From: Nannocystis bainbridge
GTDB lineage: Bacteria; Myxococcota_A; Polyangia; Nannocystales; Nannocystaceae
DNA length: 64,000 bases
Direction: 5' to 3'
Assembly (NCBI RefSeq): GCF_028368995.1
Contig: NZ_JAQNDL010000002.1
Span: forward strand, 864,001-928,000
In this document: positions 5,176 through 62,325 of the stretch, in pieces
Layout of the letters: each line of letters starts with the position of its first letter
How positions within the stretch are numbered: position 1 is the stretch's first letter
The notes under the pieces: model-generated
The model's input: only the letters and a program-made list of their open reading frames with translations
Told to the model about the DNA's origin: nothing
Databases searched by the model: none
Program-made: the position numbers and the translations under genes

Positions 5176-5256
5176 GGGCATGTCCCCGGGAGCATGTCCC
5201 CGGTGACATGCCCTTGCGGACATGCCCGAAGCGACATGCCCGGTCGGACATGCCCC
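5176..5256. repeat. 14-bp-period TGTCC-N4-GGACA array
   Basis: CATG at 5179, 5193, 5207, 5221, 5235, 5249; between convergent genes. Confidence 0.9.
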
Positions 5257-5261
5257 TTCGT

Positions 5262-6527
5262 TCAGCCGGCGCTGCGACGCAGGCGGGCCAGCTGGGAGTT
5301 GGCGTCGCGGGCGTAGCGGCCGGTCGGGGCCAGCTTCAGGTAGGTCTCGTAGGCGATCACGGCGCCGGCGTCGTCCTTGCCGTGCTGGCGCAGCACGCCG
5401 AGGGTCAGCCAGCAGTCGGCGAGGCTGGGGTCGACCGCCACGCACTTGTCGGCGGTGGTCCGCGACTCCGACATCTTGCCCTGCTCGAGCTGGACCTGGG
5501 CGGTCAGCAGCAGCACCTCGGGGTGCTCGGGCGCCTGCTGCGACAGCTCGGTCAGCGCGGACGAGGCGACCTTGAGCTTGCCGTCCTTGTAGGCGTTCTT
5601 GGCCCGGTCGAGCCGCTCGACGAACGCCGCGTCGGTGGGCGCGGGCGGGGCCGGCTTGGGCGCCTCGACGACCTTGGGCTCGGGCAGCGGCTCGGGCTTG
5701 ACCTCGGGCGCCTTGGCCTCGGCGGGCGGCTCGCCCTGCGTGTCGGCGGCGACCGTGTCGGCCGCGGCCTCGTCGGCGAACAGCGAGTCGCGCATCGCGT
5801 ACACGGCGACCGCGACGATCACCGCGGCCACGGCCCCGATCAGCGGCCACGGCGGGGGCGGGGGCGGGGGCGGTGTGGCGAACAGGTCGTCGTCGCCGCC
5901 GCTGTCGCTGTCGCCCATCGGCTCGGTGGCGCCGAGGAACGCCTGCATGAACTCGTCGGCGGGGCGGGCCTGGAAGGACGGGGGCGGCTCGCTCGGCGGG
6001 GCGGGGATCGGCGCCGAGGCGATCGGCTGGATCGGGGGCGAGGGCGGCGGCGGCGGCGTGGTGCGGATCGGCGAGAGCGCGGGCAGGACGTCGAGATCGA
6101 GGTCACCGCCGAACGAGCCGAACTCGGTCGAGCGGGCCAGCGGATCGCCGCGCCGCTCGGGCTCGGGCTGGCTGGCGCGCGGCTCGACCGACAGCGGCGG
6201 GATGCCGCCGCGCAGGGTCGTCGAGAACACGCTGTCGGGCGCGAGGCTGGCGCTCGGCGGCGGCTCGCTGACGGGCTCGGGGGCTGTCCCCTGGAACATG
6301 TGCGAAAGACCAGACGCGGGCGTGGACTGCGAGGTGTGGCCGAAGTCGCCGAGCGGACGCTCGCCCTCGCCGCGGGTGGGGGCCAGGCTGGCGAACGCGG
6401 CGCTCACGGGCGAGGCGCTCGCAGGCGCGGCTTCGGGTCGCCGCGACGGATCCAGCCACTCACCGCAGAACCGGCACTTGACGGCGACTTCCTGGATCTG
6501 CTCCCCACAGAATGGGCAAGGTTTCAC
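5262..6527 (-). CDS. Zinc-ribbon / Pro-rich / TM / TPR protein; 5' end supplied by the integrated element
   Basis: CPFC...CRFC, Pro-rich linker, TM helix, C-terminal TPR (AYETYLKLAPTG); GTG start. Confidence 0.85.
   Translation of the reverse strand: MKPCPFCGEQIQEVAVKCRFCGEWLDPSRRPEAAPASASPVSAAFASLAPTRGEGERPLGDFGHTSQSTPASGLSHMFQGTAPEPVSEPPPSASLAPDSVFSTTLRGGIPPLSVEPRASQPEPERRGDPLARSTEFGSFGGDLDLDVLPALSPIRTTPPPPPSPPIQPIASAPIPAPPSEPPPSFQARPADEFMQAFLGATEPMGDSDSGGDDDLFATPPPPPPPPWPLIGAVAAVIVAVAVYAMRDSLFADEAAADTVAADTQGEPPAEAKAPEVKPEPLPEPKVVEAPKPAPPAPTDAAFVERLDRAKNAYKDGKLKVASSALTELSQQAPEHPEVLLLTAQVQLEQGKMSESRTTADKCVAVDPSLADCWLTLGVLRQHGKDDAGAVIAYETYLKLAPTGRYARDANSQLARLRRSAG
6503..6527. other. Left attachment junction of integrative element
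   Basis: ccccacagaatgggcaaggtttcac matches 20551-20575 at 21/25 positions; identical 8-bp core CCCCACAG. Confidence 0.8.
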
Positions 6528-6828
6528 TTCACGGGAGATACCTCAAAGCCCCTCCCCGGCCAAGTAGGCCACATTCAGACCCCTTCCGGCGGGACCTTCG
6601 CTCCAGCGCTGCACCAGGAGCATCGCTCGCCCGTCGCTTCCGGCGCCTTCGTCGAAAGCCAGCTGGACCCGGTTCCGTCTGCCCTCCAGGTCACTGGCCC
6701 TTCCGCCAATGAGATCCCGGCCCAGGCGTTCGGCCTGGGCGACGCGCCGGTCGCGCGTCTGTTCGGCGTGAGCCGGAAGCTGGTCACGAGCCGGGTCGGC
6801 AGTCGCCAGGCCGAAAGGAAGGTCGCCC

Positions 6829-7785
6829 ATGGGTGAACCGACCAATCTCGGGCGCTGGATCCTTCGCTCCCTCGATGTTCAAGGGCGCGACCGCGCGCGG
6901 TGCTGCGATGCGGCCATCGCCAGCGAGCTCGATGGCTGGCGCGTGTTGGTGGTCGCGGACGGAGTGTCGAGCCGCGCGCACACGCACTTCGGCGCGCACC
7001 TGACCTCGCGTGTTGCGCTGCGTGCTGCACTTCACCACTTGCTGCGCGGTGGCCCAGTGCGCCTGGTGCCCTCGGCCATTCAAACGGAGGTCGGCGCAGC
7101 GCTCCGTGCTGCTCTCTGTGCGCTGGGGGATGAGGAGGCGCGCCTTGCTCTTCCGTGCACGCTCGTGTTGCTCGTCGTTGGGGCCCAGGAGGCCGCCGCG
7201 TGGTTCTGTGGTGACGGCGATGCTGCGCTCGTCGGGCTGCCCGATGACGTGCAACTGATGCGTCGTGTCGGCCACCCCCCGTCGGGGTTGGCCAACCGCA
7301 CGATGACGACGTCGAAGCTTCATCATGCTGTCGGCGACAGCACCACGGAAGCGCGCGTCATCGCCTCAGAAGATGCCTACGCGGTCCACTGGCGTCGGCG
7401 TGGCGAGGTTGTGTCGGGGTTGCCCTGCTCGTGGGCGTTCCCCGAACAGCGGCCCGCTCAGATGCTGCCCGCCTTCCACGCGATCGGGGATCTGGCGGGG
7501 CTTCGCGGTGCTTTCGTGGCCACGGATGGACTGTCGGAGGAGGGTGCCCAGCTCCTGCTCGCGTCGCCGGCGGTGATGTCGAGCGACCTCCACGAGCGAG
7601 TCCGAGGCGCGTCCGACGACGTGGGCGTTGCGTGGGGGGGCTCGCTGGCCACTCAGGTGCTGCGCGATGCCGCGACGCCGCAGCACGTCGGGGACGAACT
7701 CGAGTTGAGTCTGAGGGCCCTCGGGCTGTCGGACTCCCAACTGCGGTTGGGCCAACCGGAGTTGGCTGAAGAGGAGGACGCGTAA
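6829..7785 (+). CDS. PP2C-family (PP2C_2-like) protein phosphatase
   Basis: VLVVADGVSS, CTL, CGDG, FVATDGL and SDDVG motifs; AGGAAGG RBS upstream. Confidence 0.7.
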   Translation: MGEPTNLGRWILRSLDVQGRDRARCCDAAIASELDGWRVLVVADGVSSRAHTHFGAHLTSRVALRAALHHLLRGGPVRLVPSAIQTEVGAALRAALCALGDEEARLALPCTLVLLVVGAQEAAAWFCGDGDAALVGLPDDVQLMRRVGHPPSGLANRTMTTSKLHHAVGDSTTEARVIASEDAYAVHWRRRGEVVSGLPCSWAFPEQRPAQMLPAFHAIGDLAGLRGAFVATDGLSEEGAQLLLASPAVMSSDLHERVRGASDDVGVAWGGSLATQVLRDAATPQHVGDELELSLRALGLSDSQLRLGQPELAEEEDA

Positions 7786-12243: not shown

Positions 12244-12257
12244 GGGTGGGTCCCTTG

Positions 12258-12263: not shown

Positions 12264-13642
<1,379 letters not shown>

Positions 13643-14520: not shown

Positions 14521-16550
14521 CACGGCGGCGTCAGCTAAGCATTGACGACCTGCTCGAAGGGACAGACATGGCGAGCAAGAGTACCAAGAAGGCACCGACA
14601 AATCGGGCTGCAGCGACTGCGGCCAAGCCCGCCCAGGCGGGCAAACCCAAGTCAGCGAAGCCGACCAAGGCCGCGGCGAAGGTCGCCGAGGAGGAGGCGG
14701 CTTCAGCCATCGCGCCCAGCTGGTGCTACGCGGCAGCGGTTGCGTGCGACCTCGTGCTGCGTGATCTCGAATGGCAGGCAACGCGCCGGGCCAAGTCGCT
14801 GCCGCGATGGGAGGATGGTGGCGTCGTCCCGTGCTTCCTCGCCGTGTTGGTGCGCGAGGGGCCTGGCGTGCTGGAGCGCGTGCACGAGCTGCTGCCGAGC
14901 TGCCCGCGGGACTGGCGTGGGTGGGCCGCCGAACGGGACGCGCTGTTCGAGAAGGCCGGCGTGGTCCTCGACTTCCGCAAGCTGGCCGACCGTCAGGTCG
15001 TCCAGGTGAGCCCGCATCACATCGAGCTCGCCACCGACCCGAAACATTCGATGTTCGACCGGCGCGCCCTCCTGCCGCCCGACCGCGGCTTGGCGGAGTC
15101 GATCAAGGCCGTGGGCGAGGTCGTCGAGGTCCTGCAACTGACGCCGCACGAGGACGAGGACGGCACGACCAGGCTGTACTCGGGGAGCGGGAGTCGGCGC
15201 ACGCAGGCGACCCGCCTGGCGAACCGCCTCCTGCTCGAGGAGTGGATGCAGCAGGTTCGCCGCACCAACGACGGGAAGCGCGCGACGCTGGCGCCGCCGG
15301 TGTTGATTCGGACGGTTCACGCGATGGTCCGGCGAGAAGGCAAGGCGCGCACGGTGGCCGCGGTGGTGGCCAACCAGATGCGGCTCGAGGAGGATCTGAT
15401 CCGCGAGGCGGACGGCGTCGAGCAGCTGCTCGCCGCCGGCTACCGCCTCGAGGACGTTGCAGCTCGCACGGGTAAGAGCCTCCGCACCGTGACGAACCTG
15501 CACAGCCTGAACAAGCTCGCGGCCGAACTGCGCGACGAGGTGACGCAGGGGAAGCTGCCGGCGGTGGTGGCGTACAGGCTGGCCATGGAGCCGTCGAAGA
15601 AACGTCAAGTCGAGGCGGCGCGCGCGACCGACTCCTACAAGACCGGCGGTCCCCGCTGCCAGGCGATCGATTGCTATCTCGCTGGGCAACCGTTGCCCGT
15701 GGTGGCGCCCAAGAAGCCGACGATGGCCAGCCGGACCATCCACGCGGCCGCGGAACGCCTCGCTGCCGCCTCGCTGCCGGCCGAGCTCGGGCCGTTCGTG
15801 CTGATGGCCAAGGCCATGGCCGGCGACCACGATGCGATGGCGGCCCTACCGCCGCAGATCCGTGGCGCCTTCGTGGATCCGGCGAAGCAGGCGAAACAGC
15901 GGCTGCGGTGGCAGGAAGCGGGCTTCGACGAGACCTCGCAGATGGCGTGGATGGCGGCGAGCGACGAGATCGGCCCCGAGCAAGCGAAACGCCTGCAGGG
16001 GGTTGGGGCGCTGCCCGAACACCTGAACCTATCGCCCACGGTTCACCTGCTCGACGAGGTCGAGGAGGAGTCCTGGGGCCTCGCCAGCGACACGGTCACG
16101 CTCGGGAGCCTGCTCGACGACTTCATCATCAATGAGGCGCAAGTCGCAGCCGATGCTGGTCGCGACGGGCAACGCGTCACGACATACGCGGAGCATGAGG
16201 AGCTTCGCTGGAGTCGGCGAGGGTTCACGAGCGAGGAAACGGCCTCGTGGCGCCAGGCGACGCAGACGCCCAGCCTCGAGTCGGGCTGCTCGAGCGAGAT
16301 GGCCGCCGCGTTGCGCGACTCGGGCGTCACGCCCGCGATGCTGCTGCTGGCTCCGACGGGCGACCTCTTGGGGAAGTACGTTGCAAGCTGGGACTTCGAG
16401 ACCAACGAGCGACTCAGTCTGGGTCTGTTCGTGATGGAGGCCGGTCTCGAAGTCGCCGAGGTCCTGAAAGATGCCGCCTCCAGCGACCAGCGCTTCGCTA
16501 CCGGCGGCGAAGCGCTGGCGCTCCTGGAAGCGGAGGACGCGGCCGAATAG
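14517..16550 (+). CDS. ParB/Spo0J-like protein with duplicated C-terminal module
   Basis: LAESIKAVG, GSRR box II-like motif, HTH LEDVAARTGKSLRTV; two RW...GF...W modules; alternative ATG at 14568. Confidence 0.7.
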   Translation: MTRRRQLSIDDLLEGTDMASKSTKKAPTNRAAATAAKPAQAGKPKSAKPTKAAAKVAEEEAASAIAPSWCYAAAVACDLVLRDLEWQATRRAKSLPRWEDGGVVPCFLAVLVREGPGVLERVHELLPSCPRDWRGWAAERDALFEKAGVVLDFRKLADRQVVQVSPHHIELATDPKHSMFDRRALLPPDRGLAESIKAVGEVVEVLQLTPHEDEDGTTRLYSGSGSRRTQATRLANRLLLEEWMQQVRRTNDGKRATLAPPVLIRTVHAMVRREGKARTVAAVVANQMRLEEDLIREADGVEQLLAAGYRLEDVAARTGKSLRTVTNLHSLNKLAAELRDEVTQGKLPAVVAYRLAMEPSKKRQVEAARATDSYKTGGPRCQAIDCYLAGQPLPVVAPKKPTMASRTIHAAAERLAAASLPAELGPFVLMAKAMAGDHDAMAALPPQIRGAFVDPAKQAKQRLRWQEAGFDETSQMAWMAASDEIGPEQAKRLQGVGALPEHLNLSPTVHLLDEVEEESWGLASDTVTLGSLLDDFIINEAQVAADAGRDGQRVTTYAEHEELRWSRRGFTSEETASWRQATQTPSLESGCSSEMAAALRDSGVTPAMLLLAPTGDLLGKYVASWDFETNERLSLGLFVMEAGLEVAEVLKDAASSDQRFATGGEALALLEAEDAAE

Positions 16551-17507: not shown

Positions 17508-19023
17508 TGGCGACTCAAGCACGAGAGCCCGACCCCGAGACCGCCGAGAAGGCGACGCGTCGCAGCTTCACGCCGGCGTACAAGCGGAAGATCCTCGCGC
17601 AGACCGACCACGCGAGCGATGGGCAGATCGGCGCCATCCTGCGCAAGGAGGGCCTGTACAGCTCGCTGTTGTCGACCTGGAGGCGGCAGCGAGACGAGGG
17701 TACGCTGGGCGCGTTGAAGCCGAAGAAACGCGGACCGAAGCCGAAGCAGGACCCCGAGCAGAAGGAGCTGGAGCGCCTGCGCCGCCGTGTGGCGCAGCTC
17801 GAGCACAAGCTCGAGACGGCGGAGCTGATCATCGATGTCCAAAAAAAAGTCTCGCAATTGCTCGGGATCCCGCTCGCGACGATCGATCCGTCCGAGAAGC
17901 CCTGATCGCGCAAGCGGACGATCTGTCCGCGAGGACAGGTCTGTCGCGGGCGTGCGAGGCGCTGGGGGTCTCGCGGGCGACCGTGTACCGTCGGCGCCGC
18001 CCTGCGCCGTCGCCGAGCTCGGCGAAGCCGCGGCCGTCGCCACGGGCGCTGAGCGCGGTGGAGCGCCAGGAGGTGCTGGAACTGCTGCACAGCGAGCGCT
18101 TCGTCGACAAGGCGCCCGAGGTCATCGTGCCGATGCTGCTCGACGAGCAGCGCTGGCTATGCAGCGCGCGCACCATGTATCGCCTGCTCGCCGCCGAGGG
18201 CGAGCTCCGCGAGCGCCGGCGACAGCGGCGGCACCCCGAGTACAAGCGCCCCGAGCTGCTGGCGACCGCGCCGAACCAGGTGTGGTCGTGGGACGTCACC
18301 TGGCTGCGGGGACCGACGAAGGGCCAATACTATTACCTGTACGTCCTGCTCGACATCTACAGCCGCTGCGTCGTCGGCTGGACCCTGGCGCGCCGCGAGA
18401 GCGCCGACATCGCTGCGCGCCTGATCCGCGCCGCCTGCGACAAGCAGAACATTCAACCTGACCAATTGACCATCCACGCCGATCGCGGCGCCGTCCCGAC
18501 CTCCCGCGAGCTCGCCGACCTTTACGACGTCCTCGGCGCCCGCCGCTCGCACAGCCGGCCCCACGTCAGCGACGACAATCCGTACTCGGAGGCCCACTTC
18601 AAGACCCTCAAGTATACCCACGACTACCCCGACCGCTTCGCCTCCTACGACCACGCCCACGCCTTCTGCGGCCGCTTCGTCGACGGCTACAACCATCACC
18701 ACCGCCACTCCGGCATCGCCTTCCTGGCGCCCGCCGACGTGCATTACGGCCGCACCGAGGCCATCCTGTCCATCAGGGCTGCCGCCCTCCACGCCGCCTA
18801 CGAAGCCCATCCCGAGCGCTTCGTCCGCGGACTGTCCACGCCGCGCCGGCCTCCCGCCGCGGTCTACATCAACCCACCGCGCCGCCTCGAACGCGGCCTT
18901 CGCGAGTACGACGTCCATGTCCTTTCGGACGGGTGCAGCACGACCGATCCATCCTTTCATCACCACTCCGGCGAAATCTCACAATCACTAAACCCGACCA
19001 ACACCGTGTCTCAAAGTCATTGA
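17498..19023 (+). CDS. IS3-family transposase OrfA (to 17905) / OrfB, -1 programmed frameshift
   Basis: OrfA HTH plus zipper; A8G slippery site 17841-17849; OrfB in -1 frame with DDE core (WSWDVT, HADRG, DNPYSEAHFKTLK). Confidence 0.92.
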
Positions 19024-20722: not shown

Positions 20723-21829
20723 ATGAAGCGCGACCACCACCTCTCGTCGTTCCTGCGCAAACCCCCGGCTCGCCTCGATCTGGCGACCTTGCCGACCCCG
20801 GTCGAGCGGGCGCCGTGGCTCGACGCTCCAGGCGCCGCGGTCTACGTCAAGCGCGACGATCAGACCAGCCGACTCTATGGCGGCGGCAAAGTCCGCAAGC
20901 TGGAGTGGCTGCTCGCCAACCCGCCGTACGACGATCGACGTCCGATCCTCTCGGTCGGTGGGATCGGCAGCCACCACCTCGTCGCCCTCGCGCTGCACCT
21001 CCAGGCCCAGGACCGCGAGCTGCACGCGTGGGTGTTCGACCAGGTGCCGACCGAGCACACGCTCGACGATCTGGCGGTGTTGCTGTCGACCGGGGCCAAG
21101 CTGTGGGCCGTGCCGACGCGGCCGGCGCTGCCGCTGGCGTGGCTGGGCTATCGCACGTGGGCGAAGCCGCCGCAGAGCGGGGTCTACATGCCGCCGGGCG
21201 GGACCACCGGGATCGGTTGCCTCGGCTTCGTCGAGGCCGGGCTCGAGCTGGCCCAGCAGGTCAAGGAGGGCCTGCTGCCGGCCCCGCAGGCGCTCTACGT
21301 CACCGGGGGCACGTGCGGCTCGTGTTGTGGGCTGGCGCTCGGGCTGGCGCTCGCGGGCCTGCCGGTGCGCATCCGCGTGGTCTCGGCGCTCGAGCGCCTG
21401 TACCTCGGGACATACTTGCTGAAGCGCACGCTGAACCAGGCCTTCGCCGCCCTGGTGGACGCCGGGCTGCAGCCCGAGCTGGCCGCGCTCGGTCCGGCCG
21501 GGCTGCTCGCGCGCGCCGGCGTGACCTGGTCGATCGATCACTCGCAGGTCGGCTCCGGATACGCCGTGCCGACCACGGCCGGGCAGGAGGCGGTGGACCT
21601 GGCCGCGGGCGGCGGGCTCGAGCTCGAGACGACCTATACCGGCAAGTGCCTGGCCGCGCTGCGTCGCGACCTCGCGGCCGGCGAGGTCGCGGGGCCGGTG
21701 CTGTTCTGGGACACCCACGGGGCCACCGACCTGCGGCCGCACATCGTCGCCGGCTGGCAGGCGCGCGTGCCCCTGGCGCTGCGGCGGCGACTGATCCGCG
21801 CCGGCGCGGCCCTGCCGGCCGCGCGCTGA
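20723..21829 (+). CDS. PLP-dependent D-cysteine desulfhydrase / ACC deaminase family enzyme
   Basis: PTPV, YVKRDD, YGGGKVRKLE, GSHH, LETTYTGK. Confidence 0.88.
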   Translation: MKRDHHLSSFLRKPPARLDLATLPTPVERAPWLDAPGAAVYVKRDDQTSRLYGGGKVRKLEWLLANPPYDDRRPILSVGGIGSHHLVALALHLQAQDRELHAWVFDQVPTEHTLDDLAVLLSTGAKLWAVPTRPALPLAWLGYRTWAKPPQSGVYMPPGGTTGIGCLGFVEAGLELAQQVKEGLLPAPQALYVTGGTCGSCCGLALGLALAGLPVRIRVVSALERLYLGTYLLKRTLNQAFAALVDAGLQPELAALGPAGLLARAGVTWSIDHSQVGSGYAVPTTAGQEAVDLAAGGGLELETTYTGKCLAALRRDLAAGEVAGPVLFWDTHGATDLRPHIVAGWQARVPLALRRRLIRAGAALPAAR

Positions 21830-21860: not shown

Positions 21861-21907
21861 GCACATGCCCCGAAGGGCATGTCGCACAGGACATGTCCGA
21901 AGGGGCA
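21861..21907. repeat. 14-bp-period array
   Basis: CATG at 21864, 21878, 21892. Confidence 0.8.
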
Positions 21908-25730: not shown

Positions 25731-25801
25731 ACTGTCCCTTGGGGCATGCCCACACGACCATGTCGTGATGGACATGCCCGGAGGAGCATGTCTAAAAGGA
25801 T
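25731..25801. repeat. 14-bp-period array
   Basis: CATG at 25745, 25759, 25773, 25787; between convergent genes. Confidence 0.85.
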
Positions 25802-25807
25802 AGCCGT

Positions 25808-38557: not shown

Positions 38558-38565
38558 GGCGTTCG

Positions 38566-38600
38566 GGACATGTCGTCGAGGACATGTCCCGAAGGACCTG
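38566..38600. repeat. 14-bp-period array
   Basis: CATG 38569, 38583, CCTG 38597; convergent junction. Confidence 0.8.
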
Positions 38601-38603
38601 CGA

Positions 38604-39317: not shown

Positions 39318-39522
39318 GCGCGGAGGTTACACGCGCGACCGACGGCGGTTCAATCGCTGGCGCCCGCCGCAAACTCGCACGCGGGCGCCCGGGTGCGCCC
39401 AGTGGGCGCCCAGGAATCCGGGACGCGTCGCGCTGCCGAGCGCGAAGGGCGAACTGCAAGACGCGCGACGCGGCGGATGTCCGATGGGACAGGTCGTGGG
39501 CGACCGCGTCCCGGCGCGCGGA

Positions 39523-40734: not shown

Positions 40735-41052
40735 GCGCGCTTCCGGCTAGCACGAATGACGGCGGGCCGGAAGCGACCGAGAGGGCGGTGCAAGGGCGAG
40801 GGGACCCGCCGGGGCGGACGGGAGTCCGGCGGCCGGTCGCTTCGCCGGGGCCGGGCTCGCAGGTGCGGGACGGAGCGCACGCGCCGTTCGAGCCTGGTTC
40901 TTCGGGCATGTCTTTCGGGACATGTGAATGGTGTGTCGCGGCGGCGCGGCCAGGCGACGAACGGGCCGGTCGGCGGACGGCGACCGCCGGGCGCGCCCGC
41001 GGAGGGCACGATCCCGCATGAAGCCGGCGGTGAGATCGGGTAGATCGAGGGC

Positions 41053-41592
41053 ATGTCGAGGGTCTTCACCCGCGAGCGCTGCATCCCGTGGCTGTGCGCC
41101 CGCGTGCCGGTCGACGACGAGCCGCAGGAGGTCGCGCTGTCGGTCGACGAGCTGTGCGCCCGGATCCCGCGCCGGGCGGCCCGGGGCCTGCGATGGTCGG
41201 GGGCGCTCGGGCTGGTGGCCGCGGCGGTGGTGCTGCTGACGGCGGCGCGCCCGGCTCGCGCGGACAGCTCCGGGGCGCGCCCGTCGGCCCGGTCGGTGGC
41301 CGGCTATACGCTCGGGGGCCTCGGCCTCGGCGCGCTGGCAGCGAGCCGTCGCCTCCACCGCAGCTCGCCGGGCCTGGCGGTGCTGTGCGCCGGGCGCGAC
41401 GCCGACCTCGATCCGCGGTCGCTGGCGGCGCTGGTCAAGACGGCGCGGGCCCGCCTGTCCGAAACGGCATGGCCGGAAGGACATGTGTGGTTGATCTCCG
41501 AGCGGCCGCTGGCGGCCGACCGCAGGGCCCACGCGGCCGCGCTCCAGGTCCGCTGCTTCGTGGCGGTGAACGGCCGCATCACCGAAGTGTGA
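41053..41592 (+). CDS. Hypothetical membrane protein
   Basis: Host-like codon usage, two hydrophobic segments. Confidence 0.5.
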   Translation: MSRVFTRERCIPWLCARVPVDDEPQEVALSVDELCARIPRRAARGLRWSGALGLVAAAVVLLTAARPARADSSGARPSARSVAGYTLGGLGLGALAASRRLHRSSPGLAVLCAGRDADLDPRSLAALVKTARARLSETAWPEGHVWLISERPLAADRRAHAAALQVRCFVAVNGRITEV

Positions 41593-42224: not shown

Positions 42225-42304
42225 CGGCATGTCTTCATAAACATGTCTGAATGGACATGTTTGATGGGGCATGGCCAAGAGAGCATGGCCGAGAGGGCAT
42301 GTTT
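42225..42304. repeat. 14-bp-period array
   Basis: CATG at 42228, 42242, 42256, 42270, 42284, 42298. Confidence 0.88.
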
Positions 42305-42557
42305 TCAAGGTCAGGCGAGGGGGCAGGCCGGCGGGGCTGCCCGCGAGCGGTGCGGATCCGAGAGGCCAGGGCCCGCGTCGAAGCTTCGGTTGGTTTGCCA
42401 GCGACCCGCGGGTCGGGAGCCTCAAAACCGCCGGGATCGTCACGATGGCGCCTGAGCGCATCCTCGACGCCCGCAACCCGGTGAAGGGCGAGCCGCTGCA
42501 GCCCCGGGCGGCGCCCGTCGCTCCGGCGGCCGCCGGTCTGATAGCATCGCGGCGATG

Positions 42558-46390: not shown

Positions 46391-46621
46391 GCGGGCGGGG
46401 CGACGGCGGCGAGCTCGGCGCTGGAAATCGGCGCGAGGCTGGAGGTCGCAAAAATGTCCGAAGGGACAGGTCCGCTTCACGTCGTCGTGGCGAGCGGCGA
46501 GGCGCGAGATCGGGAGCTGCGGAGGACGCGTGAGGGCGAAACGGAGGGGCGATGCACGCGAGGCCCGATCTGCGAGCGTGGAAGTCCGTGGTAGGGGCGC
46601 AGGGCAGGTACACTGCCGCGA

Positions 46622-47650: not shown

Positions 47651-47682
47651 GCGCGGACGGCGGCGCCGGCGGGTGACCGATC

Positions 47683-47762
47683 GGGCATGTTCGATAGGAC
47701 ATGCCTAAAAGGCCATGTCTCATGGCGCATGTCCATGAGGACATGGCCTCGGAGACATGGGC
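47683..47762. repeat. 14-bp-period array
   Basis: CATG at 47686, 47700, 47714, 47728, 47742, 47756; convergent junction. Confidence 0.9.
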
Positions 47763-48875: not shown

Positions 48876-49096
48876 CGCGGCGAACGATAGCGCGTGCCGG
48901 GCGGCCAGGGCAGGGCGAATCGAGGCGCAGGTCCGCGCGAGCCGTGCGCGAGCGCGGGGGCATGCGCGGCGGGCCGGGTCCGCTCGCGGGGCCGCGAGTC
49001 CAGAGGCCGGGGTCGAGGTAGAGCTGGCGAAAAGGACATGTCGCATGGAGCATGTCCGAAGAGTCATCTAGAGCCGGCGCGACGGTGGCCACCGTG

Positions 49097-49462: not shown

Positions 49463-49621
49463 AAGGGCGGGGTCGGACGCCGGCTGCGCGGGCGATGAGC
49501 GAGCGCGCGGAGACGAGGAAGGCGCGATCGTGCGAGGTGGCCGTCGCGCAGAGGCGAGGACACCACGGGGTGAGAACGGTCGAGCGCGCGGAGGCGAGGG
49601 CTGAGCGACTCAGGGTCGTTC

Positions 49622-49701
49622 GGACATGGTCGAACGACCATGTCGTGACGGACATGCTCGTGGGGACATGGGCATGAGGACATGCGCTTTTGCGCATGTC
49701 C
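49622..49701. repeat. 14-bp-period array
   Basis: CATG at 49625, 49639, 49653, 49667, 49681, 49695; convergent junction. Confidence 0.9.
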
Positions 49702-49707
49702 TCCGGG

Positions 49708-52700
49708 TCAGACCGGCGCGAGCATCAGCAGGAGGTCGCCGGCGTCGAGGTTGTCGCCGACGGCGACGGCGAAGCGGCGCACGGTGCCGGGGTGCGGGGC
49801 GGCGACGACGGTCTCCATCTTCATGGCGGAGAGCACGACCAGCGGGGCGCCGGCGGCCACCTTGTCGCCGACGGCGACGCGCAGCTCGGTGACGGCGCCG
49901 GGCATCGGGGCGGCGACGGCGGCGGGGTCGTCGGGGGTGGCGCGCTCGCGCTGCTTGACGGTCTGGACCGCCGACTTGTCGGCGATCCGCAGCGAGCGCG
50001 GCTGGCCGTTGAGCTCGAAGAAGACGTCGCGCTGGCCGTCGGGGCCGAGCTCGCCGACCGCCTTCATGCGCACGATCAGCGTCTTGCCTTGCTCGATCTC
50101 CACGCTGAGCTCCTCGCCGACCGGCAGCCCGGCGAAGAAGGCCCGCGTCGGCAGCCGCGAGACGTCGGCGAACTGGGCGCGGAACGCCAGGTACTCGCGG
50201 AACACGGTCGGGTAGAGCGCGCCCGAGACGATGTCGACGTCGCGCAGCGGCATGCTGGCGAGCTGCTGCAGCTCGGCGGCGAGGGTCTCGAAGTCGAGGT
50301 CGGGTAGCGAGGCGCCGGGGCGGCCCTCGAAGGTCGGGCGGCCGCGCAGGACCTTGGTGCGCAGCGGCTCGGGGAAGCCGCCGTGGGGCTGGCCGAGGTG
50401 GCCCTGGAAGAACTCGACGACGGAGCTGGGGAACGAGAGGGTCTCGGCCTGCGCGAGCACGGCGGCCTCGTCGAGGTCGTTCTGGACCATGAACTGGGCC
50501 AGGTCGCCGACGACCTTGGAGGACGGGGTGACCTTGATGATGTCGCCGAGCAGGCGGTTGGCGGCCGCGTAGGCGCGCTTGATCGCCGGCCAGCGGGAGG
50601 CGAGGCCGAGGGCGTTGGCCTGGAACTGCAGGTTGGTGAGCTGACCGCCGGGCATCTCGTGCAGGTACACGTCGGCGCTGCCGCTGAGGTTGCCGGCCTC
50701 GAAGGGGGCGTAGAGCGAGCGCGCCTGCTCCCAGTAGGTGCCGATCGGCGAGAGGTCGGCGATGTCGAGGCCGGTGTCGCGGTCGCTGCCGTGGAGCGCG
50801 GCGACGAGGGCCCCGAGGGCCGGCTGCGAGGTGACGCCGGCCATGGTGGTGATCGCGGCGTCGACGATGTCGGCGCCGGCCATGGCGGCGGCGAGCATGG
50901 AGGCGACGCCGGTGCCGGCGGTGTCGTGGGTGTGGACGTGGATCGGGACGGCGGGGTGGGCGGCGCGCAGGGCCTCGACGAGGATCATGGCGGCGCGCGG
51001 GCGCAGCAGGCCCGCCATGTCCTTGATGGCGAGCACGTGGGTGCCCATCTCGACCAGCTTGCCGGCGAGGTCGACGTAGTACTGCAGGGAGTACTTGGTG
51101 CGCCCGGGGTCGGCGACGTCGCCGCTGTAGCAGAGCGCGGCCTCGATCACGCCGCCGGCCTCGCCGACGGCGTCGACGCCGAGCTTGAGGTTCTCGGTGT
51201 AGTTGAGGCAGTCGAAGATCCGAAACACGTCGACGCCGCGCTCGGCCGAGTGGCGGACGAACCGGCGCACGACGTTGTCGGGGTAGTTGGTGTAGCCGAC
51301 GGCGTTGGCGCCGCGCAGCAGCATCTGGAACGGGATGTTGGGGACGAGCTCGCGCAGGCGCTCGAGGCGATCCCACGGGTCCTCGCGGAGGAAGCGGAGG
51401 GCGACGTCGAAGGTGGCGCCGCCCCACATCTCGAGGCTGAAGGCCGGGGCCAGCACGCGGGCGGTGGCCGGGGCGATGGCGAGGAGGTCGATGGTGCGGA
51501 CGCGGGTGGCGAGCAGCGATTGATGGGCGTCGCGCCAGGTGGTGTCGGTGAGGAGCAGGCCAGGGTGAGCGCGCACGGCGGCGGCGAACGCCGCGGGGCC
51601 CTTGGCGCGCAGGAGGTCGCGCCAGCCGGCCAGCGGGGCGCCTTCGCGGGCCTCGGGGACCTCGGGGTCGATGCGCGCGGGCGGGGTCTGGGTGGCCCAC
51701 GGGGTAGTGGGGCCGTTGACGGCGACCTCGGCGAGGAAGCGCAGCAGTCGCTGGGCGCGGTTGCGTCGCGCGGGCAGATCGAAGAGCTCGGGGGTGCCGT
51801 CGACGAAGCCGGTGGTGATGTCGCCGGCGACGAACTTGGGGTGGCCGAGGACGTTTTGAAGGAAGGGGATGTTGGTCTTGACGCCGCGGATCCGGAACTC
51901 GGCCAGCGCGCGCAGGAGCTTGTGCCGCGCGACCTCGAAGGTGTTGCCGCGCGCGGTGACTTTGACGAGCAGCGAGTCGTAGTGCGGCGTGATGACGGCG
52001 CCGCTGTAGCCCGAGCCGCCGTCGAGGCGGATGCCCATGCCGCTGGCCGAGCGGTAGGCCTCGATGCGGCCGGTGTCGGGGCGGAACTGGGCGCGGGGAT
52101 CTTCGGTGGTGATCCGGCACTGGATGGCGTGGCCGCGCGCCACGATCGCGCCCTGGTGGAGGCCGAGATCGGCCAGGGTGGCGCCGCCGGCGATCCGGAT
52201 CTGGGCCTGGACGAGATCGACGCCGGTGATCTCCTCGGTGACGGTGTGCTCGACCTGGATCCTCGGGTTGACCTCGATGAAGTAGTGGCGGCCGTCGCCA
52301 TCGACCAGGAACTCGACGGTGCCGGCGTTCTCGTAGCCGACGGCGCGGGCGAGCCTGAGGGCGTCGCCGTGCAGGCCGTCACGTGTCTCTCGGGACAGGC
52401 CGAGCGCGGGCGCCATCTCGACGACCTTCTGGTGGCGGCGCTGGACCGAGCAGTCGCGCTCGAACAGGTGCACGACCTCGCCGGTGCGATCGCCGAGGAT
52501 CTGCACCTCGACGTGGCGGGCGGCGCCGACGAACCGCTCGAGGAAGACGGTGCCGTCGCCGAAGGCGGCCTTGGCCTCGCTGGCGGCGCGCGTGAAGGCC
52601 TCGTCGAGCTCGTCGGCGCTGCGGACGACCCGCATGCCGCGGCCGCCCCCGCCCATGGCGGCCTTGACGATGATCGGGAAGCCGTGGGCGGCCGCGAACG

Positions 52701-54251: not shown

Positions 54252-54345
54252 GGGCATGGCCGATCGGGCATGTTCCCGAGGACATGTGCATCGGGGCATG
54301 TGTTCACGAGCATGTCCCGAAGGGCATGTCTCGAGAGACATGGTG
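54252..54345. repeat. 14-bp-period array
   Basis: CATG at 54255, 54269, 54283, 54297, 54311, 54325, 54339; convergent junction. Confidence 0.92.
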
Positions 54346-54374: not shown

Positions 54375-55973
<1,599 letters not shown>

Positions 55974-56169: not shown

Positions 56170-58071
56170 TTATGGCGCGACTTCGTAGCGCTGCTGGCGT
56201 TGGCGGAACGCCTCGCGGCCGCCCTCCATCAGGCGCAGGATGTGCTGCTTGACGGTCTCGACGCTGCCCTGCGCGACCTGCCGGGCGTTGCGGCCGTCAG
56301 CCTCGAGCACGATGACCTGCGGGGCCTCGCCGAGGACCGGGAGGTTGGGGTTGTGGGTGATGAAGACGAGCTGCCGCTGGCCGCGGATGGCCGCCAGCTG
56401 CGGGACGATGGCGTCGGTGATGAAGCTGTTGTCGAGGTTGTCCTCGGGTTGGTCGACCAGCAGCGGGGCCTCGCTGTCCATCAGCAGGATCGGCAAGATG
56501 GCGGCGCTCTTCTGCCCGGTCGACAGCTTGTCGCTGCTGCGCCAATCGCCCTGGACCTGCAGCTCGATGCGCGGGATGTCCTCGAGCTCGAGCACGTCGA
56601 GCTCGAACCGCTTGTCGGGGGCCTCGCGCAGGGCCCGGAGCAGCGATTCGGCGAACTCAGGGTTGATCTCGGCGGTCGCGGCGAGCGCGGCGTGGTCGTC
56701 GCGGTCGACGAACTGGCCCAGCTGGACCGGGGTGACCTGGGCGACGAGGCGCTCGATCGGGGCGTTGTACTGCTTGCCCGAGCGGCGCATCACCGCGACC
56801 AAAAACTCGCGGTAGGCGGCGAGGTCGCCGGCGGCGGCGAGGATGATGCGGACCTTGCCGCCGAGGTGGGCGCTGACGTTGCCGGCGGCGGCGCTGCGGC
56901 GGGCGTGACGATCGCCGCGCAGCCGCTGCAGCTCGTCGCGCAGCTCGCCGCGGGTCCGCAAGGTCTGGTCGAGCGTGGCCTGCAGCTCGCCGAGCTCGGC
57001 CTTGCTGGCCGACAGGCGCATGACCTCGCGCGCGGCCTCGTCGCGGGCGGCCAGGCGCGCGCCGCTCTTGGCGGCCACGGTCGCCAGCTCGGCGTAGCGG
57101 GCCTCCTGCGGGGCGTGGGCGGCCGCGAGGGCGGCGGTGGCGTCGTCGACCGAGCGGTCGAGCAGGGCCAGCTTGTCGAGCGGCGACGAGACGTAGAGGT
57201 CGATCTCGACGATCTTGCGCTGGATCTCTCGGGACAGGTCCGCGAGGACATGTCCGTTGGGACCTCTGAGCAGGCCGTCGGGCAGGGCGGTCGACAGCGC
57301 CTTGACCTGCGGCAGGACGGTGTCGCCGATGAGGCCGCGCAGCTTGCCGACGGCGGCGCGGACGCGGTCTAGGGCGGCCTTCTCTTGCTCGCGCAGGGCC
57401 TTGTGCTCGGCGGCGGCCTGCAGCCCGTCGGCCAGGCCGCCCTCGCCGAGCGCCGCGTTGGCGGCGGCGAGCTTGCTCTCCCAGCTCGAGAGGTCGATGA
57501 GGTCGCGCTGGGCGGCGTGCAGGCGGGTGTGGAGGGCGATGATCCGCTGCGCGTTCTCGCGCAAGTGCGAGATGGTCTGGGTCAGCTGGGTCTCGATGGC
57601 GTGGCTCTGCTGGCCGCACAGGCGGTCGATGAGCTCGCGCTGGGCGACCGGGCTCTGGGCGATGTCCTCGATCTGGTTGTGCGAGAAGATGGCGGCGTCG
57701 ACGAGCACGGCGGAGCCGAGCACTTCGGGCCGGACGGGCTTGCCGGCGGCGTCGGTGACCTGCGGGGCGTCGTGGGCCCCGCGGCGGATCTGGTAGACGA
57801 GGCCCTCCTGGCTCTCGAACTCGAGCTCGACGTAGCCGCTGGTCCCGAGGTTGGCGGCGAGCAGGTTCTTGAGCCGGTCGTCGGCCGCCTTGGCGGCGGC
57901 GGTGCCCGATCGCGGGGCGCGGTCGAGGGCGTGGCGGATGAACTCGAGGACGGTGGTCTTGCCGCTGCCGCGACCGCCGATGATGCAGTTCAGGCCGTCG
58001 GCGAAGCGGATGTCGAGCTTGTCGAGGAAGCCGCCGTAGACGCGGAGACGACGCAATTTGTGGTGAACCAC
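56170..58071 (-). CDS. SMC/ABC-type AAA ATPase (TrlF/Ppl-ATPase-like), no PHP domain
   Basis: GGRGSGKTT, coiled coil, LSTGQK, DQPEDNLDN, ITHNPN, MEGGREAF. Confidence 0.85.
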   Translation of the reverse strand: MVHHKLRRLRVYGGFLDKLDIRFADGLNCIIGGRGSGKTTVLEFIRHALDRAPRSGTAAAKAADDRLKNLLAANLGTSGYVELEFESQEGLVYQIRRGAHDAPQVTDAAGKPVRPEVLGSAVLVDAAIFSHNQIEDIAQSPVAQRELIDRLCGQQSHAIETQLTQTISHLRENAQRIIALHTRLHAAQRDLIDLSSWESKLAAANAALGEGGLADGLQAAAEHKALREQEKAALDRVRAAVGKLRGLIGDTVLPQVKALSTALPDGLLRGPNGHVLADLSREIQRKIVEIDLYVSSPLDKLALLDRSVDDATAALAAAHAPQEARYAELATVAAKSGARLAARDEAAREVMRLSASKAELGELQATLDQTLRTRGELRDELQRLRGDRHARRSAAAGNVSAHLGGKVRIILAAAGDLAAYREFLVAVMRRSGKQYNAPIERLVAQVTPVQLGQFVDRDDHAALAATAEINPEFAESLLRALREAPDKRFELDVLELEDIPRIELQVQGDWRSSDKLSTGQKSAAILPILLMDSEAPLLVDQPEDNLDNSFITDAIVPQLAAIRGQRQLVFITHNPNLPVLGEAPQVIVLEADGRNARQVAQGSVETVKQHILRLMEGGREAFRQRQQRYEVAP

Positions 58072-58301: not shown

Positions 58302-59417
58302 ATGCTCCGTGTCGCGCCGTGGCTCGCGCTGTTGCTGACGGGATGCGAGGCGATGTCGGGCCGCGAGGCCGGGCCCGAGGTCGCGCCGGTGACCGGGGCG
58401 ACGCTGGCGGAGACCGGGCCGCTGCGGGCCGCGATCGCGGCGGGGGTCCGGCGGCGCAGCGAGAACGAGGCGAGCTACGAGGTCGACGCGTTCGTGGCCG
58501 CGCTGGCGGTCGAGGAGCTGGCGAGCGGGACGGGCGGGGTGCGGGTCGAGCCGGCGGTGGAGCGCGGGGCGCAGGTCGGCTATCGGCTGACCGAGGTGGT
58601 GCCTGGCTCGGTGTACGAGCGGATCGGGCTGCGGACGGGCGACGTGGTCGAGGCGCTCGGCGAGGTCCGACTCGACAGCCCGGGCCGCGCGGCCGGGGCG
58701 CTGGCCCGGCTGGAGCGCGGCGGGCAGGTGACGGTGAGCCGCGACGGGGTCGGGTTCTCGCTCGAGCTGCGGGTCGCAGGCGGGCTGGCGTGGGCGGAGC
58801 TGCTGCGCTCCAGGACAGGTTCGCCAGGACAGGTCGCCGGGGACATGCCCTCGCGGACAGGCCCGTTGGGGCAGGTCCCGGAGGACAGGTGGGTGGCGGA
58901 CGGGGAGCCGCCGGCGGGGCCGCGCGACGGCGAAGCCGGAGGAACGCCGGTGGTGTCGCCGGGCGGCGGGGCGCTGCCGGGGACGCCGACGGGGTCGCGG
59001 CCGACGGGCGCGGGGAAGCCGAGCCGCGGCAGTACGGGCAGCGGGGTGGCGAGTCCTGCCGGTTCGACGGGCACGAGCCCGGCGGGGAAGACGGGGGTGC
59101 AGTGCGCGTCGGCGACGAGCTGCACGCTCGAGAAGCAGCAGTTCGACGCGGCGCTCGCCGACCCGAGCAAGCTCGAGCGCCAGGCGTCGATCTCACCGGC
59201 GCGCGGGGGCTACAAGCTGACCCGCGTGACGCCGGGCAGCACGGTGGCGGCGCTGGGGTTCCGCGCGGGCGACGTGATCGTGTCGGTCAACGGGGCCCGC
59301 CTCGACGACGACATGGCGGCGCTGGGGCTCTACATGGGGCTCGAGGGCACGCGCAAGTTCAACGTGACGTACGAGCGCAACGGGGCGCGCGCGAGCAAGG
59401 CGATCGCGCTGCGGTGA
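58302..59417 (+). CDS. Dual-PDZ (GspC-like) lipoprotein
   Basis: LTGC lipobox; GYRL..PGS..GLRTGDVV and GYKL..PGS..GFRAGDVI. Confidence 0.75.
   Translation: MLRVAPWLALLLTGCEAMSGREAGPEVAPVTGATLAETGPLRAAIAAGVRRRSENEASYEVDAFVAALAVEELASGTGGVRVEPAVERGAQVGYRLTEVVPGSVYERIGLRTGDVVEALGEVRLDSPGRAAGALARLERGGQVTVSRDGVGFSLELRVAGGLAWAELLRSRTGSPGQVAGDMPSRTGPLGQVPEDRWVADGEPPAGPRDGEAGGTPVVSPGGGALPGTPTGSRPTGAGKPSRGSTGSGVASPAGSTGTSPAGKTGVQCASATSCTLEKQQFDAALADPSKLERQASISPARGGYKLTRVTPGSTVAALGFRAGDVIVSVNGARLDDDMAALGLYMGLEGTRKFNVTYERNGARASKAIALR
58813..58891. repeat. 14-bp-period array inside a coding linker
   Basis: CAGG/CATG at 58816, 58830, 58844, 58858, 58872, 58886. Confidence 0.85.
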
Positions 59418-59446
59418 GCGGCGAGCGCTTCGGTGGATGGCGCATG

Positions 59447-59480
59447 GGACATGTCCAGAGGGGCATGTCCGAAGTGACAG
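59447..59480. repeat. 14-bp-period array
   Basis: CATG 59450, 59464, CAGC 59478; convergent junction. Confidence 0.78.
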
Positions 59481-60791: not shown

Positions 60792-60960
60792 GGTCGCGGG
60801 CGCCGGCGCGGGGGCATGGATCGACATGTCCCCGAGGACAGCTCGAGCGCGCGAGGAGCCGCCCGCCGCGACCTGACGCGGGCGCAAGGTCGGGGCGCGC
60901 TCGCCTGGCGCAGACACCGGACGTCGATGTCGTTGTGAACGAGGTTCGCCCTCCCGTACG

Positions 60961-62247
60961 GTGCCGAGCGTGCGAGACGGCGAGGACGGCGGCGAGGGCC
61001 AGACGCTCGAGGTCGTGGGCCACGTGACCGACGAGTCGTGGCTCGGCATCCCGGCGCTGCACGCCGGCGGCGGGCTGATGGTGGTGCTGGCGGTGGCGCT
61101 GGTGGTCCACGCGCTGGCGCTGCGGCTCGCCCTGCCGCTGGCGCACGGGATGGCGCAGCGCAGCCGGACGACCTGGGACGACGTGCTGGTCAAGCACAAG
61201 GTGCTGGCGCGGCTGGTGCCGATCGCGGCGCTGGTGGTGATCGGCCGCGGCGTCGGGCTGGTGGTCGGGCTCGACGACTCGCTGGCGCGCTTCGTCGAGC
61301 GCATGGCGCTGGCGGCGATCCTGGTGGTGGCGGTGCGCGCGTTCGGGGCGCTGCTGACGGCCACCAACGAGCTGTACACGCGCAACCCGCAGGCGCTCGG
61401 GCGGCCGATCAAGGGCTACCTGCAGGGGCTGAAGGTGCTGGCGTACATCGGCGCGGCGATCGTGGTGATCGCGACGCTGCTCGACCAGTCGCCGTGGCTG
61501 CTGCTCAGCGGCCTGGGGGCGATGACGGCGGTGCTGCTGCTGATCTTCCGCGACACGCTGCTGTCGTTCGTGGCCGGGATCCAGCTGACGACGAACGACC
61601 TGATCCGGGTCGGCGACTGGCTCGAGATGCCGCAGTTCGACGCCGACGGCGGGGTGGTCGACATCTCGCTGAACGTGGTGAAGGTGCAGAACTGGGACGC
61701 GACGATCACGGTGATCCCGACCCACAAGTTCCTCGAGCACTCGTTCAAGAACTGGCGGGCGATGTTCGAGTCGGGCGGGCGCCGGATCAAGCGCGCGGTC
61801 CACATCGACATGGCGACGGTCCGGTTCCTCGACGCGGCGGAGATCGAGCGGCTGTCGCAGATCGTGATCCTGCGCGAGTACCTGGCGAGCAAGGTCCGCG
61901 AGGTGGCGGAGTACAACGAGGCGACGGTGCCGGACGACGCCGCCGCGGTGCCGGCCAACGGGCGCCACCTGACCAACCTCGGCACGTTCCGCGCGTATGT
62001 GGAGGCGTACCTGCGCGCGCACCCGAAGATCCACCCGGGGATGATGCGGATCGTCCGTCAGCTGCACCCGACGCCGCAGGGGCTGCCGCTCGAGATCTAC
62101 GTGTTCTCGAAGGAGACGGCGTGGGTGGTCTACGAGGGCATCCAGGCCGACATCTTCGACCACGTGCTGGCGATCGCGCCGGAGTTCGGCCTGCGCGTGT
62201 TCCAGGCCCCGTCCGGCAACGACCTGGCCCGGCTGGGCGGGCGCTGA
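60961..62247 (+). CDS. MscS-family mechanosensitive channel (YbdG-like); start uncertain
   Basis: GLGAMTAVLLLIFRD, VGDW, VKVQNWD, GGRRIKR, GLPLEIY, FGLRVFQ. Confidence 0.92.
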   Translation: MPSVRDGEDGGEGQTLEVVGHVTDESWLGIPALHAGGGLMVVLAVALVVHALALRLALPLAHGMAQRSRTTWDDVLVKHKVLARLVPIAALVVIGRGVGLVVGLDDSLARFVERMALAAILVVAVRAFGALLTATNELYTRNPQALGRPIKGYLQGLKVLAYIGAAIVVIATLLDQSPWLLLSGLGAMTAVLLLIFRDTLLSFVAGIQLTTNDLIRVGDWLEMPQFDADGGVVDISLNVVKVQNWDATITVIPTHKFLEHSFKNWRAMFESGGRRIKRAVHIDMATVRFLDAAEIERLSQIVILREYLASKVREVAEYNEATVPDDAAAVPANGRHLTNLGTFRAYVEAYLRAHPKIHPGMMRIVRQLHPTPQGLPLEIYVFSKETAWVVYEGIQADIFDHVLAIAPEFGLRVFQAPSGNDLARLGGR

Positions 62248-62250
62248 CGA

Positions 62251-62325
62251 GGTGTCCATGAGGACATGCCGCATGGGACATGTCCCATGCGGCATGGCGA
62301 AGCGGGCATGTCCCGGGGGACAGGC
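62251..62325. repeat. 14-bp-period array
   Basis: CATG at 62265, 62279, 62293, 62307, CAGG 62321; convergent junction. Confidence 0.9.

Follow-up and report, generated by a model that had tools for sequence, protein, structure and literature searches.

Phased arrays of a 14-bp palindrome at gene ends of Nannocystis, and an XRE-family protein as their candidate reader

The 64,000-nt stretch of Nannocystis bainbridge DNA analysed here as a whole (the window, G000:C3:864001-928000, where G000 is the 11.05-Mb genome with 71% GC, assembled in five contigs and 90% complete) carries arrays of a 14-bp palindromic unit, TGTCC-N4-GGACA, which abut in strict phase and, in the rest of the genome as in the window, are concentrated between convergent genes and directly behind stop codons. 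The units very probably constitute a protein lattice on double-stranded DNA (dsDNA), and a 126-aa protein of the XRE family (HTH_3 domain), restricted to the genera that are rich in the motif, is a good candidate for the reader of this lattice. The best overall explanation that we can offer, tentative as it is, is that rows of the XRE protein act as soft barriers to transcription at gene ends, in a bacterial family in which Rho was not found.

Phased arrays in the window and in the genome

The first-pass annotation of the window had described a family of arrays with a 14-bp step, and genome-wide scans bear this out. The exact pattern occurs 1,987 times in G000, compared to 3 occurrences of the reversed pattern, and a weight-matrix scan, by which all loci were called, identified 6,520 loci with 13,802 units, amounting to 193 kb (about 1.7% of the chromosome) or one locus per 1.7 kb, while the reversed genome yielded 153 loci. 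Three or more units are present at 1,730 loci. Autocorrelation of CATG revealed 3,736 pairs at 14 bp in G000, while the adjoining spacings of 13 and 15 bp gave 72 and 262; the corresponding counts in the window are 44, 1 and 3, and in 100 Markov simulations of the window the pairs at 14 bp averaged 1.0, with a maximum of 4. Strong units are spaced by 14, 28, 42, 56 or 70 bp and almost never by 15–20 bp, both in genes and outside them.

In the window the weight matrix found 43 loci, among them 22 with 2–7 units (Table 1). All six chains named at first pass are where they had been placed, those at 5179, 42228, 47686 and 49625 with six CATG each and the one at 54255 with seven; the chain at 62265 is composed of four CATG plus one CAGG. 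The named single units were likewise recovered, with one position corrected from 46456 to 46455.

The arrays of G000 comprise 716 of three units, 256 of four, 390 of five, 249 of six and 84 of seven, and the second mode at 5–6 units, mainly due to convergent arrays, may be a preferred assembly size or a scoring effect. The longest array (21 units, G000:C3:1237890-1238183) has AT-rich centres and lies behind a 127-aa gene; it was considered as a route to the reader and abandoned, as the preceding small gene is unrelated and no reader was obtained.

Placement relative to genes

Gene calls for G000 (8,170 genes) were made with a self-trained codon model. The orientation bias suggested by the window extends to the genome: arrays of three or more units occur in 606 of 1,524 convergent spacers, 537 of 5,119 tandem spacers and 59 of 1,522 divergent spacers. 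Where the spacer measures 300–1,000 bp, 75% of 106 tandem cases have their array of five or more units no more than 30 bp from a stop codon (20% expected, computed with the last 150 bp excluded), and so do 68% of 37 convergent cases (24% expected), while single and double units exhibit no such anchoring. Convergent spacers of G000 have a median length of 120 bp (n = 1,524), versus medians of 18–58 bp in the motif-free genera (5–13 spacers each). A 33-kb ribosomal-protein region contains four single units and no array. Ten multi-unit arrays of the window do sit in convergent spacers, as had been stated, and a simple terminator scan covering 24.5–64 kb detected no terminator in nine of these ten spacers, the remaining one (5088-5261) being outside the scan.

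Anatomy of the unit

The preference of the first-pass annotation for a dsDNA-binding lattice over RNA hairpins is supported by tests of pairing and of copying, as well as by the orientation bias. Complementarity at symmetric positions, examined for 7,522 units, equals the base-frequency expectation around both the N4 axis and the CATG axis, and arrays on the sense strand show no G-U preference except at one junction position. The central bases depend strongly on their neighbours (AA/TT, GA/TC and CG are favoured, AC/GT and TA avoided), and since neighbour dependence is strongest there, the centre is likely to be read by its shape. The logo of isolated units, RSM-TGTCC-N4-GGACA-KSY, extends beyond 14 bp, which suggests that the footprint reaches into the next unit. 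Nor do the arrays look like copies: the nearest-neighbour distances of 42-bp windows match the unit-shuffled control, save for 16 exact duplicates among 1,500, adjacent units share 44% identity at variable positions (42% for random pairs), and at orthologous gene ends relatives possess arrays with other units and counts, or none. Anatomy, non-copying and turnover are what would be expected if selection for a dsDNA-binding protein had created the sites and maintained them.

Taxonomic distribution and the absence of Rho

Among 73 Nannocystaceae genomes, the exact pattern is present 67–2,090 times in all 23 genomes of three genera, i.e. Nannocystis itself (g1) and two low-copy genera (g2 and g4), and 0–20 times in the other 50. 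A scan for GACATGTCC-N4-GGACATGTC with one genome per species retrieved at least 92 stretches, and 75 of the 80 listed came from Nannocystis, Nannocystaceae or Myxococcales records. In four motif-free genomes, of which 100 kb each was examined, no further spaced palindrome was conspicuous. One g4 genome, G072, has 696 exact units with arrays at gene ends, an expansion separate from that of Nannocystis; the XRE protein was not found in this 67% complete assembly.

Searches with the Rho profile (TIGR00767) found no Rho in any of 37 Nannocystaceae genomes (G000-G036), a single-contig genome included, while 17 of 24 genomes from other families of the class scored above the cut-off. Six other-family genomes (G045, G046, G049, G053, G054 and G056) were without Rho above the cut-off and gave either no matches or matches at the ATPase level only. 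Mfd was above the cut-off in four of five genomes searched. The accessible part of a 2024 survey (PMC11347177) names Haliangium ochraceum as the sole Rho-less species among 12 Myxococcota and describes the reasons for Rho loss as unknown; the one supplement that we could consult has no mention of Nannocystis. The apparent loss of Rho predates the motif and extends beyond the genera that have it.

A candidate reader of the XRE family

Five low-copy genomes contain 18 triple-CATG chains in total, of which 15 were inspected, and two of these stand ahead of helix-turn-helix (HTH) genes, one XRE and one winged-helix. The XRE locus, in low-copy genome G028, has its chain of three CATG directly ahead of the ribosome-binding site of the small HTH gene. 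G000 possesses two paralogs of the protein (Table 1), 68–70% identical to that of G028 and each with phased units upstream. Both were assigned to Pfam HTH_3 (47.7 and 49.2 bits; curated cut-off 23). The sequence exhibits a basic insert ahead of the HTH and two C-terminal helices, and the structural model (pLDDT 81) has SinR, C.AhdI, DdrO and BldD as its best predicted fold matches. A sequence search of solved structures gave no match for the XRE protein, and the ESM Atlas returned generic HTH clusters only. Prediction of a homodimer complex scored 0.25, compared to a mark of 0.42.

The protein is present in 20 of the 23 motif-rich genomes and in none of the other 50; the three motif-rich assemblies in which it was not found are 60, 65 and 67% complete. 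All 11 genomes of Nannocystis carry two copies, and each of the two low-copy genera carries one. The family is compact (35 clusters, identity at least 58%), and its recognition helix, TVTTVNK, is invariant in all 29 aligned sequences. At least one unit (>8 bits) lies within 200 bp upstream of nine of nine orthologs from the low-copy genera, versus 14% of 184 background gene starts, and at least two units precede seven of the nine, versus 2.2% of the background; with the nominating genome excluded, the counts are eight of eight and six of eight. Four orthologs examined only after the nomination have 2, 2, 2 and 1 upstream units, and in this respect the two paralogs of G000 are among the top 2.7% and 4.4% of the genome. 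Taken together, these observations make it probable that the XRE protein reads the lattice.

Paralog A adjoins a TonB-type receptor-like gene on one side and an S41 peptidase on the other, with a CRP/FNR-family gene 2.3 kb away. About 5 kb from it, behind a bacterioferritin-like gene, five single units follow one another in 34- and 68-bp steps (G000:C1:4261046-4261264), and close to paralog B a repetitive stretch, G000:C3:1096002-1098106, holds at least 13 two-unit loci. Public runs offered contigs of relatives, and in the single run recorded as RNA the contig over the XRE gene had a depth of 159, versus 3.8–22 for seven neighbouring pieces, while two DNA-like runs were flat; this was not counted, since the depth of contigs is no basis for ranking genes.

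The XRE protein also has distant relatives whose recognition helices differ, and a wider subfamily (P0036-P0055), likewise with different recognition helices, shares the basic insert ahead of the HTH and matching C-terminal helices. No match to them was found outside g1, g2 and g4 in 401 genomes of the class (11 candidates scored per genome), nor in any but G000 of 301 genomes of the phylum (14 candidates scored per genome), and three metagenome loci of such relatives have no arrays. One of them, with a different helix (L300:566-964), shares a contig of mobile appearance with a methyltransferase, and L301 contains an integrase; a weak unit-like 14-mer lies 74 bp upstream of the L300 gene. The proximity of a distant relative to an integrase and a DNA methyltransferase is a hint of mobile origin.

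Proposed mechanism

We propose that the 14-bp unit is the operator of the lineage-specific XRE protein. One dimer would read the outer TGTCC and GGACA and sense the shape of the four central bases, and adjacent dimers would touch across the CATG junction, thereby setting the 14-bp step. With 10.5 bp per turn, such a step would rotate each dimer by about 120 degrees, so that three dimers would complete four turns. Single sites are dispersed along the chromosome, as they would be for a nucleoid protein; in Nannocystis, selection would have favoured rows of 5–7 dimers immediately after stop codons. At these places they may pause lone untranslated polymerases, namely those reading through past the gene end and those transcribing antisense from the 3' side, whereas busy sense traffic would pass. 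The paused polymerases would be removed, probably by Mfd, and the barrier could thus cover part of the job of Rho in a family seemingly without it. In E. coli, according to the available part of PMC4132739, Mfd removes polymerase at protein roadblocks such as LacI, high flux pushes through and weak flux is stopped; blocked complexes release mRNA without a stop codon, as the accessible portion of PMC13584721 states. A hard block is unlikely because arrays lie near stops, because such release would yield stop-less mRNA and because several hundred arrays are located in genes; what the barrier meets may therefore be read-through past the row, together with polymerase that comes antisense from the 3' side. 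If the lattice is granted, a barrier function is on balance the likelier outcome. An evolutionary scenario in which Rho was lost first and an XRE repressor of a mobile element was then domesticated into a genome-wide polymerising roadblock, terminating read-through and antisense transcription at gene ends, is speculative and rather doubtful as a whole; should it be true, a protein-lattice roadblock would represent a third general mode of termination in bacteria beside the intrinsic and the Rho-dependent one.

Several observations count against the XRE protein as reader or against the barrier. As many as 3.5% of 8,166 G000 genes have three or more upstream units, the units ahead of the XRE genes are not fixed in position in g2 and are few in the distant paralogs G008b and G002b, and some of them overlap the stop codon of the upstream gene, which is an ordinary location of a unit. 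The XRE orthologs are not independent of one another, and since g1, g2 and g4 form one clade (support 99 in a quick-search RpoB tree of 25 sequences), the match between the profiles of motif and protein counts as one gain. Rival DNA-binding candidates were profiled for three proteins, in five genomes each. Ribosomal-type codon bias is seen in paralog A only (93rd percentile, paralog B being at the 39th). As to the barrier, our own gene calls place about 470 arrays with at least three units inside coding sequence, 80% of 473 convergent arrays begin less than 15 bp from the nearer stop, and terminator-like hairpins, counted with the units masked, are only moderately less frequent where a spacer carries an array (57 of 543, versus 104 of 531). 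Rho was found in none of the 21 genomes searched among the 50 motif-free ones, and in g2 and g4 most units are scattered singles, of which 65 among 98 fall in coding sequence. With the motif-free genera also seemingly Rho-less and the low-copy genera having mostly singles, the arrays are not obligatory as a replacement for Rho.

Alternative explanations

Of the three jobs suggested at first pass, transcription roadblock, nucleoid organiser and self mark, stop-codon anchoring and the failure to find Rho lean towards the first, understood as a roadblock or insulator. The main rival keeps the same XRE lattice and makes it structural, without termination: a sequence-specific nucleoid protein would mark domain borders, bridge DNA or absorb overtwist at convergent ends, and rows would sit where they do since promoters and coding sequence tolerate them least. 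We regard this as possible, if doubtful. It would accommodate the approximately 3,000 loci in coding sequence (single and multi-unit, about 2,200 of them away from gene ends), the retention of in-gene arrays across relatives and the dispersed singles of g2 and g4, a state that looks ancestral. The C-terminal helices of the XRE model are similar in layout to those of the oligomerising SinR and DdrO, and the 434 repressor, in the part of PMC1636474 at hand, is reported to prefer higher central twist. However, long arrays are found at the stop codon despite hundreds of free bases, which avoidance of promoters alone does not predict, and the convergent spacers of G000 are longer than those of motif-free genera.

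Perhaps, then, another clade-restricted protein reads the lattice, and the XRE gene is merely a target or shares the clade by descent? The single gain would allow for this, as would the reach of the inspection by eye, which covered proteins of up to 200 aa only among 329 candidates (no more than 330 aa, at least two units upstream). Yet the three rivals failed the profile: the winged-helix protein from the other triple-CATG locus is found also in motif-free G085 and G064, and a second winged-helix-like and a PhaR-like protein (both named by eye) are found also in motif-free G019. The XRE protein itself fits in three respects, since its recognition helix is invariant, its gene is duplicated in the high-copy genus and the site has a 5+4+5 layout, and we consider a different reader rather unlikely.

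It is very improbable, and largely refuted, that the units are a repeat akin to the repetitive extragenic palindromic (REP) elements or REPINs, spread by a nuclease, or hairpins in RNA or single strands that stabilise mRNA ends or pause polymerase. Placement after stops and between convergent genes does resemble that of REP/BIME, CTTCG/CGAAG centres are common among the units, and one unit of the window is a hairpin followed by five T; against this, Y1_Tnp (the RAYT family, PF01797) has no match in the 90% complete G000, while 6 of 14 control genomes are positive, the arrays are not copies, symmetric positions do not covary, and Rfam has no match except the intron.

The self mark, be it a DNA-uptake-like word resulting from biased uptake or a methylation lattice on CATG, is a weak proposal with a similarly small probability: the density of loci, their scarcity in low-GC stretches (4.8 per 20 kb at 66–69% GC, versus 13.0 at 71–73%) and the lack of multi-unit arrays in the 14-kb element of the window agree with it, but fewer loci in such stretches would follow from slow accrual in long-resident DNA, uptake bias explains neither the 14-bp phase nor the stop-codon anchoring, and methylation of CATG is unlikely because isolated units mostly have no flanking TG (it follows on only 1,022 of 6,600 sides), CATG outside the loci being only 1.17 times as frequent as expected. 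The first-pass annotation had stated that no arrays occur inside the 14-kb element or the intron, which is correct for multi-unit arrays; single units are present in both (Table 1), and those within the insertion sequences of the element speak against a mark of self.

Other features of the window

The lower-GC element (6400-20500) contains an integrase fragment, an IS110 element with three copies in G000, a ParB-HTH protein, an IS3-like element, several frames without a Pfam match and a 22-bp tandem repeat in four copies at 20213-20299. The group II intron (42558-44571), encoding a reverse transcriptase and maturase, has three copies in G000 with 99% identity, each ending at the start codon of the downstream gene, and it resembles introns of the start-codon-targeting type. 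Targeting of arrays by the intron was considered and dismissed, as only two of the three copies have an array less than about 250 bp from their 5' end, and in no copy is it adjacent.

Table 1. Units and arrays called in the window by the weight matrix (window coordinates), and the two XRE paralogs of G000
Feature	Coordinates	Strand	Context
7-unit array	5167..5264		convergent spacer; overlaps stop codon of minus-strand gene
2-unit array	6285..6312		within coding sequence
3-unit array	21866..21907		tandem spacer, stop 36 bp before
5-unit array	25733..25802		convergent spacer, stop 5 bp away
weak 2-unit array	28140..28167		divergent spacer
5-unit array, CAGG junctions	29831..29900		takes up whole convergent spacer
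2-unit array	31470..31497		within coding sequence
3-unit array	33628..33669		tandem spacer, stop 6 bp before
2-unit array	34812..34839		convergent spacer
2-unit array	36913..36940		divergent spacer
3-unit array	38557..38598		takes up whole convergent spacer
2-unit array	40895..40922		divergent spacer
2-unit array	41456..41483		within coding sequence
6-unit array	42230..42313		tandem spacer, stop 11 bp before; about 245 bp ahead of group II intron
6-unit array	47674..47757		convergent spacer; same-place arrays with other unit sequences in G001 and G005
3-unit array	49025..49066		at called gene start, divergent context; start call uncertain
7-unit array	49613..49710		convergent spacer; overlaps pyruvate carboxylase stop codon
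6-unit array	54257..54340		convergent spacer; arrays also in G001 and G005, none in G010
3-unit array	57223..57264		within coding sequence; retained in 4/4 aligned relatives
6-unit array	58804..58887		within coding sequence; retained in 4/4 aligned relatives
3-unit array	59438..59479		convergent spacer
5-unit array	62253..62322		takes up whole convergent spacer
weak single unit	809..822		coding
single unit	12698..12711		14-kb element, ahead of IS110 transposase gene
single unit	14551..14564		14-kb element
exact single unit	17924..17937		in IS3-like element (14-kb element)
weak single unit	18918..18931		in IS3-like integrase gene (14-kb element)
weak single unit	21399..21412		coding
exact single unit	27852..27865		divergent spacer
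single unit	31701..31714		divergent spacer
exact single unit	34911..34924		convergent spacer
weak single unit	35793..35806		coding
single unit	36012..36025		coding
weak single unit	39287..39300		coding
exact single unit	39478..39491		tandem spacer
weak single unit	43108..43121		in group II intron
weak single unit	43777..43790		in intron reading frame
exact single unit	46455..46468		on minus strand followed by five T, so also intrinsic-terminator-like
single unit	52384..52397		coding
single unit	54734..54747		in coding 66-bp repeat
single unit	54800..54813		same coding 66-bp repeat as 54734..54747
exact single unit	60827..60840		tandem spacer
single unit	62991..63004		coding
XRE paralog A	G000:C1:4266693-4267073	minus	outside window
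XRE paralog B	G000:C3:1091654-1092055	plus	outside window

Comparison with known systems

REP, BIME and REPIN elements comprise hundreds to thousands of short lineage-specific palindromes after stops and between convergent genes. The long arrays of Nannocystis resemble them in being extragenic and similarly placed, with singles mostly in genes; they differ from REP/REPIN-RAYT systems in that no RAYT was found, arrays are not copied, stems do not covary and thousands of units lie within genes. The units also lack the REP-type GTAG/CGTC tag. HIP1 and the DNA uptake words DUS/USS are short, genome-wide and found also in genes, with neither phased rows nor stop-codon anchoring. A HIP1-like or methylated CATG word was rejected, since the over-represented core is not CATG, which is mostly absent in singles. 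ParB/parS, MatP/matS, SlmA and Noc combine a dedicated protein with palindromic sites that number in the tens and are placed regionally. In contrast to intrinsic terminators and structured RNA, nine convergent spacers of the window display no GC stem with a U tract, the unit at 46455 being an exception among the singles, and Rfam matched nothing but the intron. Unlike the C proteins of restriction-modification systems, paralog A is not beside such a system, though a distant relative is near a methyltransferase and an integrase.

Reb1-type factors of yeast limit read-through genome-wide by roadblock termination. Bacterial roadblocks (LacI, CcpA and CodY, with Mfd) resemble what is proposed here, in that polymerase is halted by a protein on the DNA and then cleared by Mfd, according to the available part of PMC4132739; they are, however, single regulatory sites, and no report of a genome-wide lattice at gene ends was found. 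MrpC of Myxococcus xanthus, of the CRP family, is likewise a dimeric myxobacterial regulator with a palindrome starting with TGT (TGTYN8RAC) and, in the portion of PMC4320627 consulted, has 1,608 promoter-favouring sites. An MrpC/CRP site was rejected for the lattice because its spacing is two bases longer: G000 has TGTC-N8-GACA 29 times and TGTC-N6-GACA 3,663 times. The Caulobacter XRE paralogs RtrA, RtrB, CdxA and CdxB share motifs, form homo- and heteromers and have 202–1,094 ChIP-seq peaks; unlike the Nannocystis unit, their motif is one strong half-site, and the accessible part of that report (PMC10688885) treats them as promoter regulators and contains no phased lattices at gene ends. 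Bacterial histones of Nannocystaceae are, in the excerpt available, named also for Plesiocystis and Enhygromyxa. The open literature, within the parts accessible to our search (subscription journals and bioRxiv supplements being outside it), yielded no description of the repeat, of a Nannocystis XRE lattice, of XRE nucleoid proteins of this kind or of Rho loss in these genera; the listed papers that matched the motif strings concerned, judging from their titles, p53 sites or unrelated subjects.

The whole family appears to be Rho-less, and one branch of it keeps about 1.7% of the chromosome in phased operator units, which bears on how GC-rich bacteria without Rho finish their transcripts and keep antisense RNA in check. 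With a specific 126-aa protein in hand the question becomes testable, and the arrays may provide a portable insulator for engineered gene clusters.

The closest parallel is phage 434, whose operator, as described in the accessible part of PMC1636474, has 14 bp with 5+5 contacted bases and four central bases read indirectly. Shared with Nannocystis are the two-fold 5+4+5 site, the XRE fold and sites upstream of the own gene. The differences lie in the bases, in three extra biased bases per side of the Nannocystis singles, and in scale and placement: six sites in two operator regions are described there for 434, compared to about 13,800 units here, which abut at a 14-bp step, are found chiefly at the ends of genes or inside them, and avoid divergent promoters. 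The component families are known and their arrangement fits no family tested; even without a role in termination, a repressor-type protein with about 14,000 lattice units would be a novel form of chromosome organisation in bacteria.

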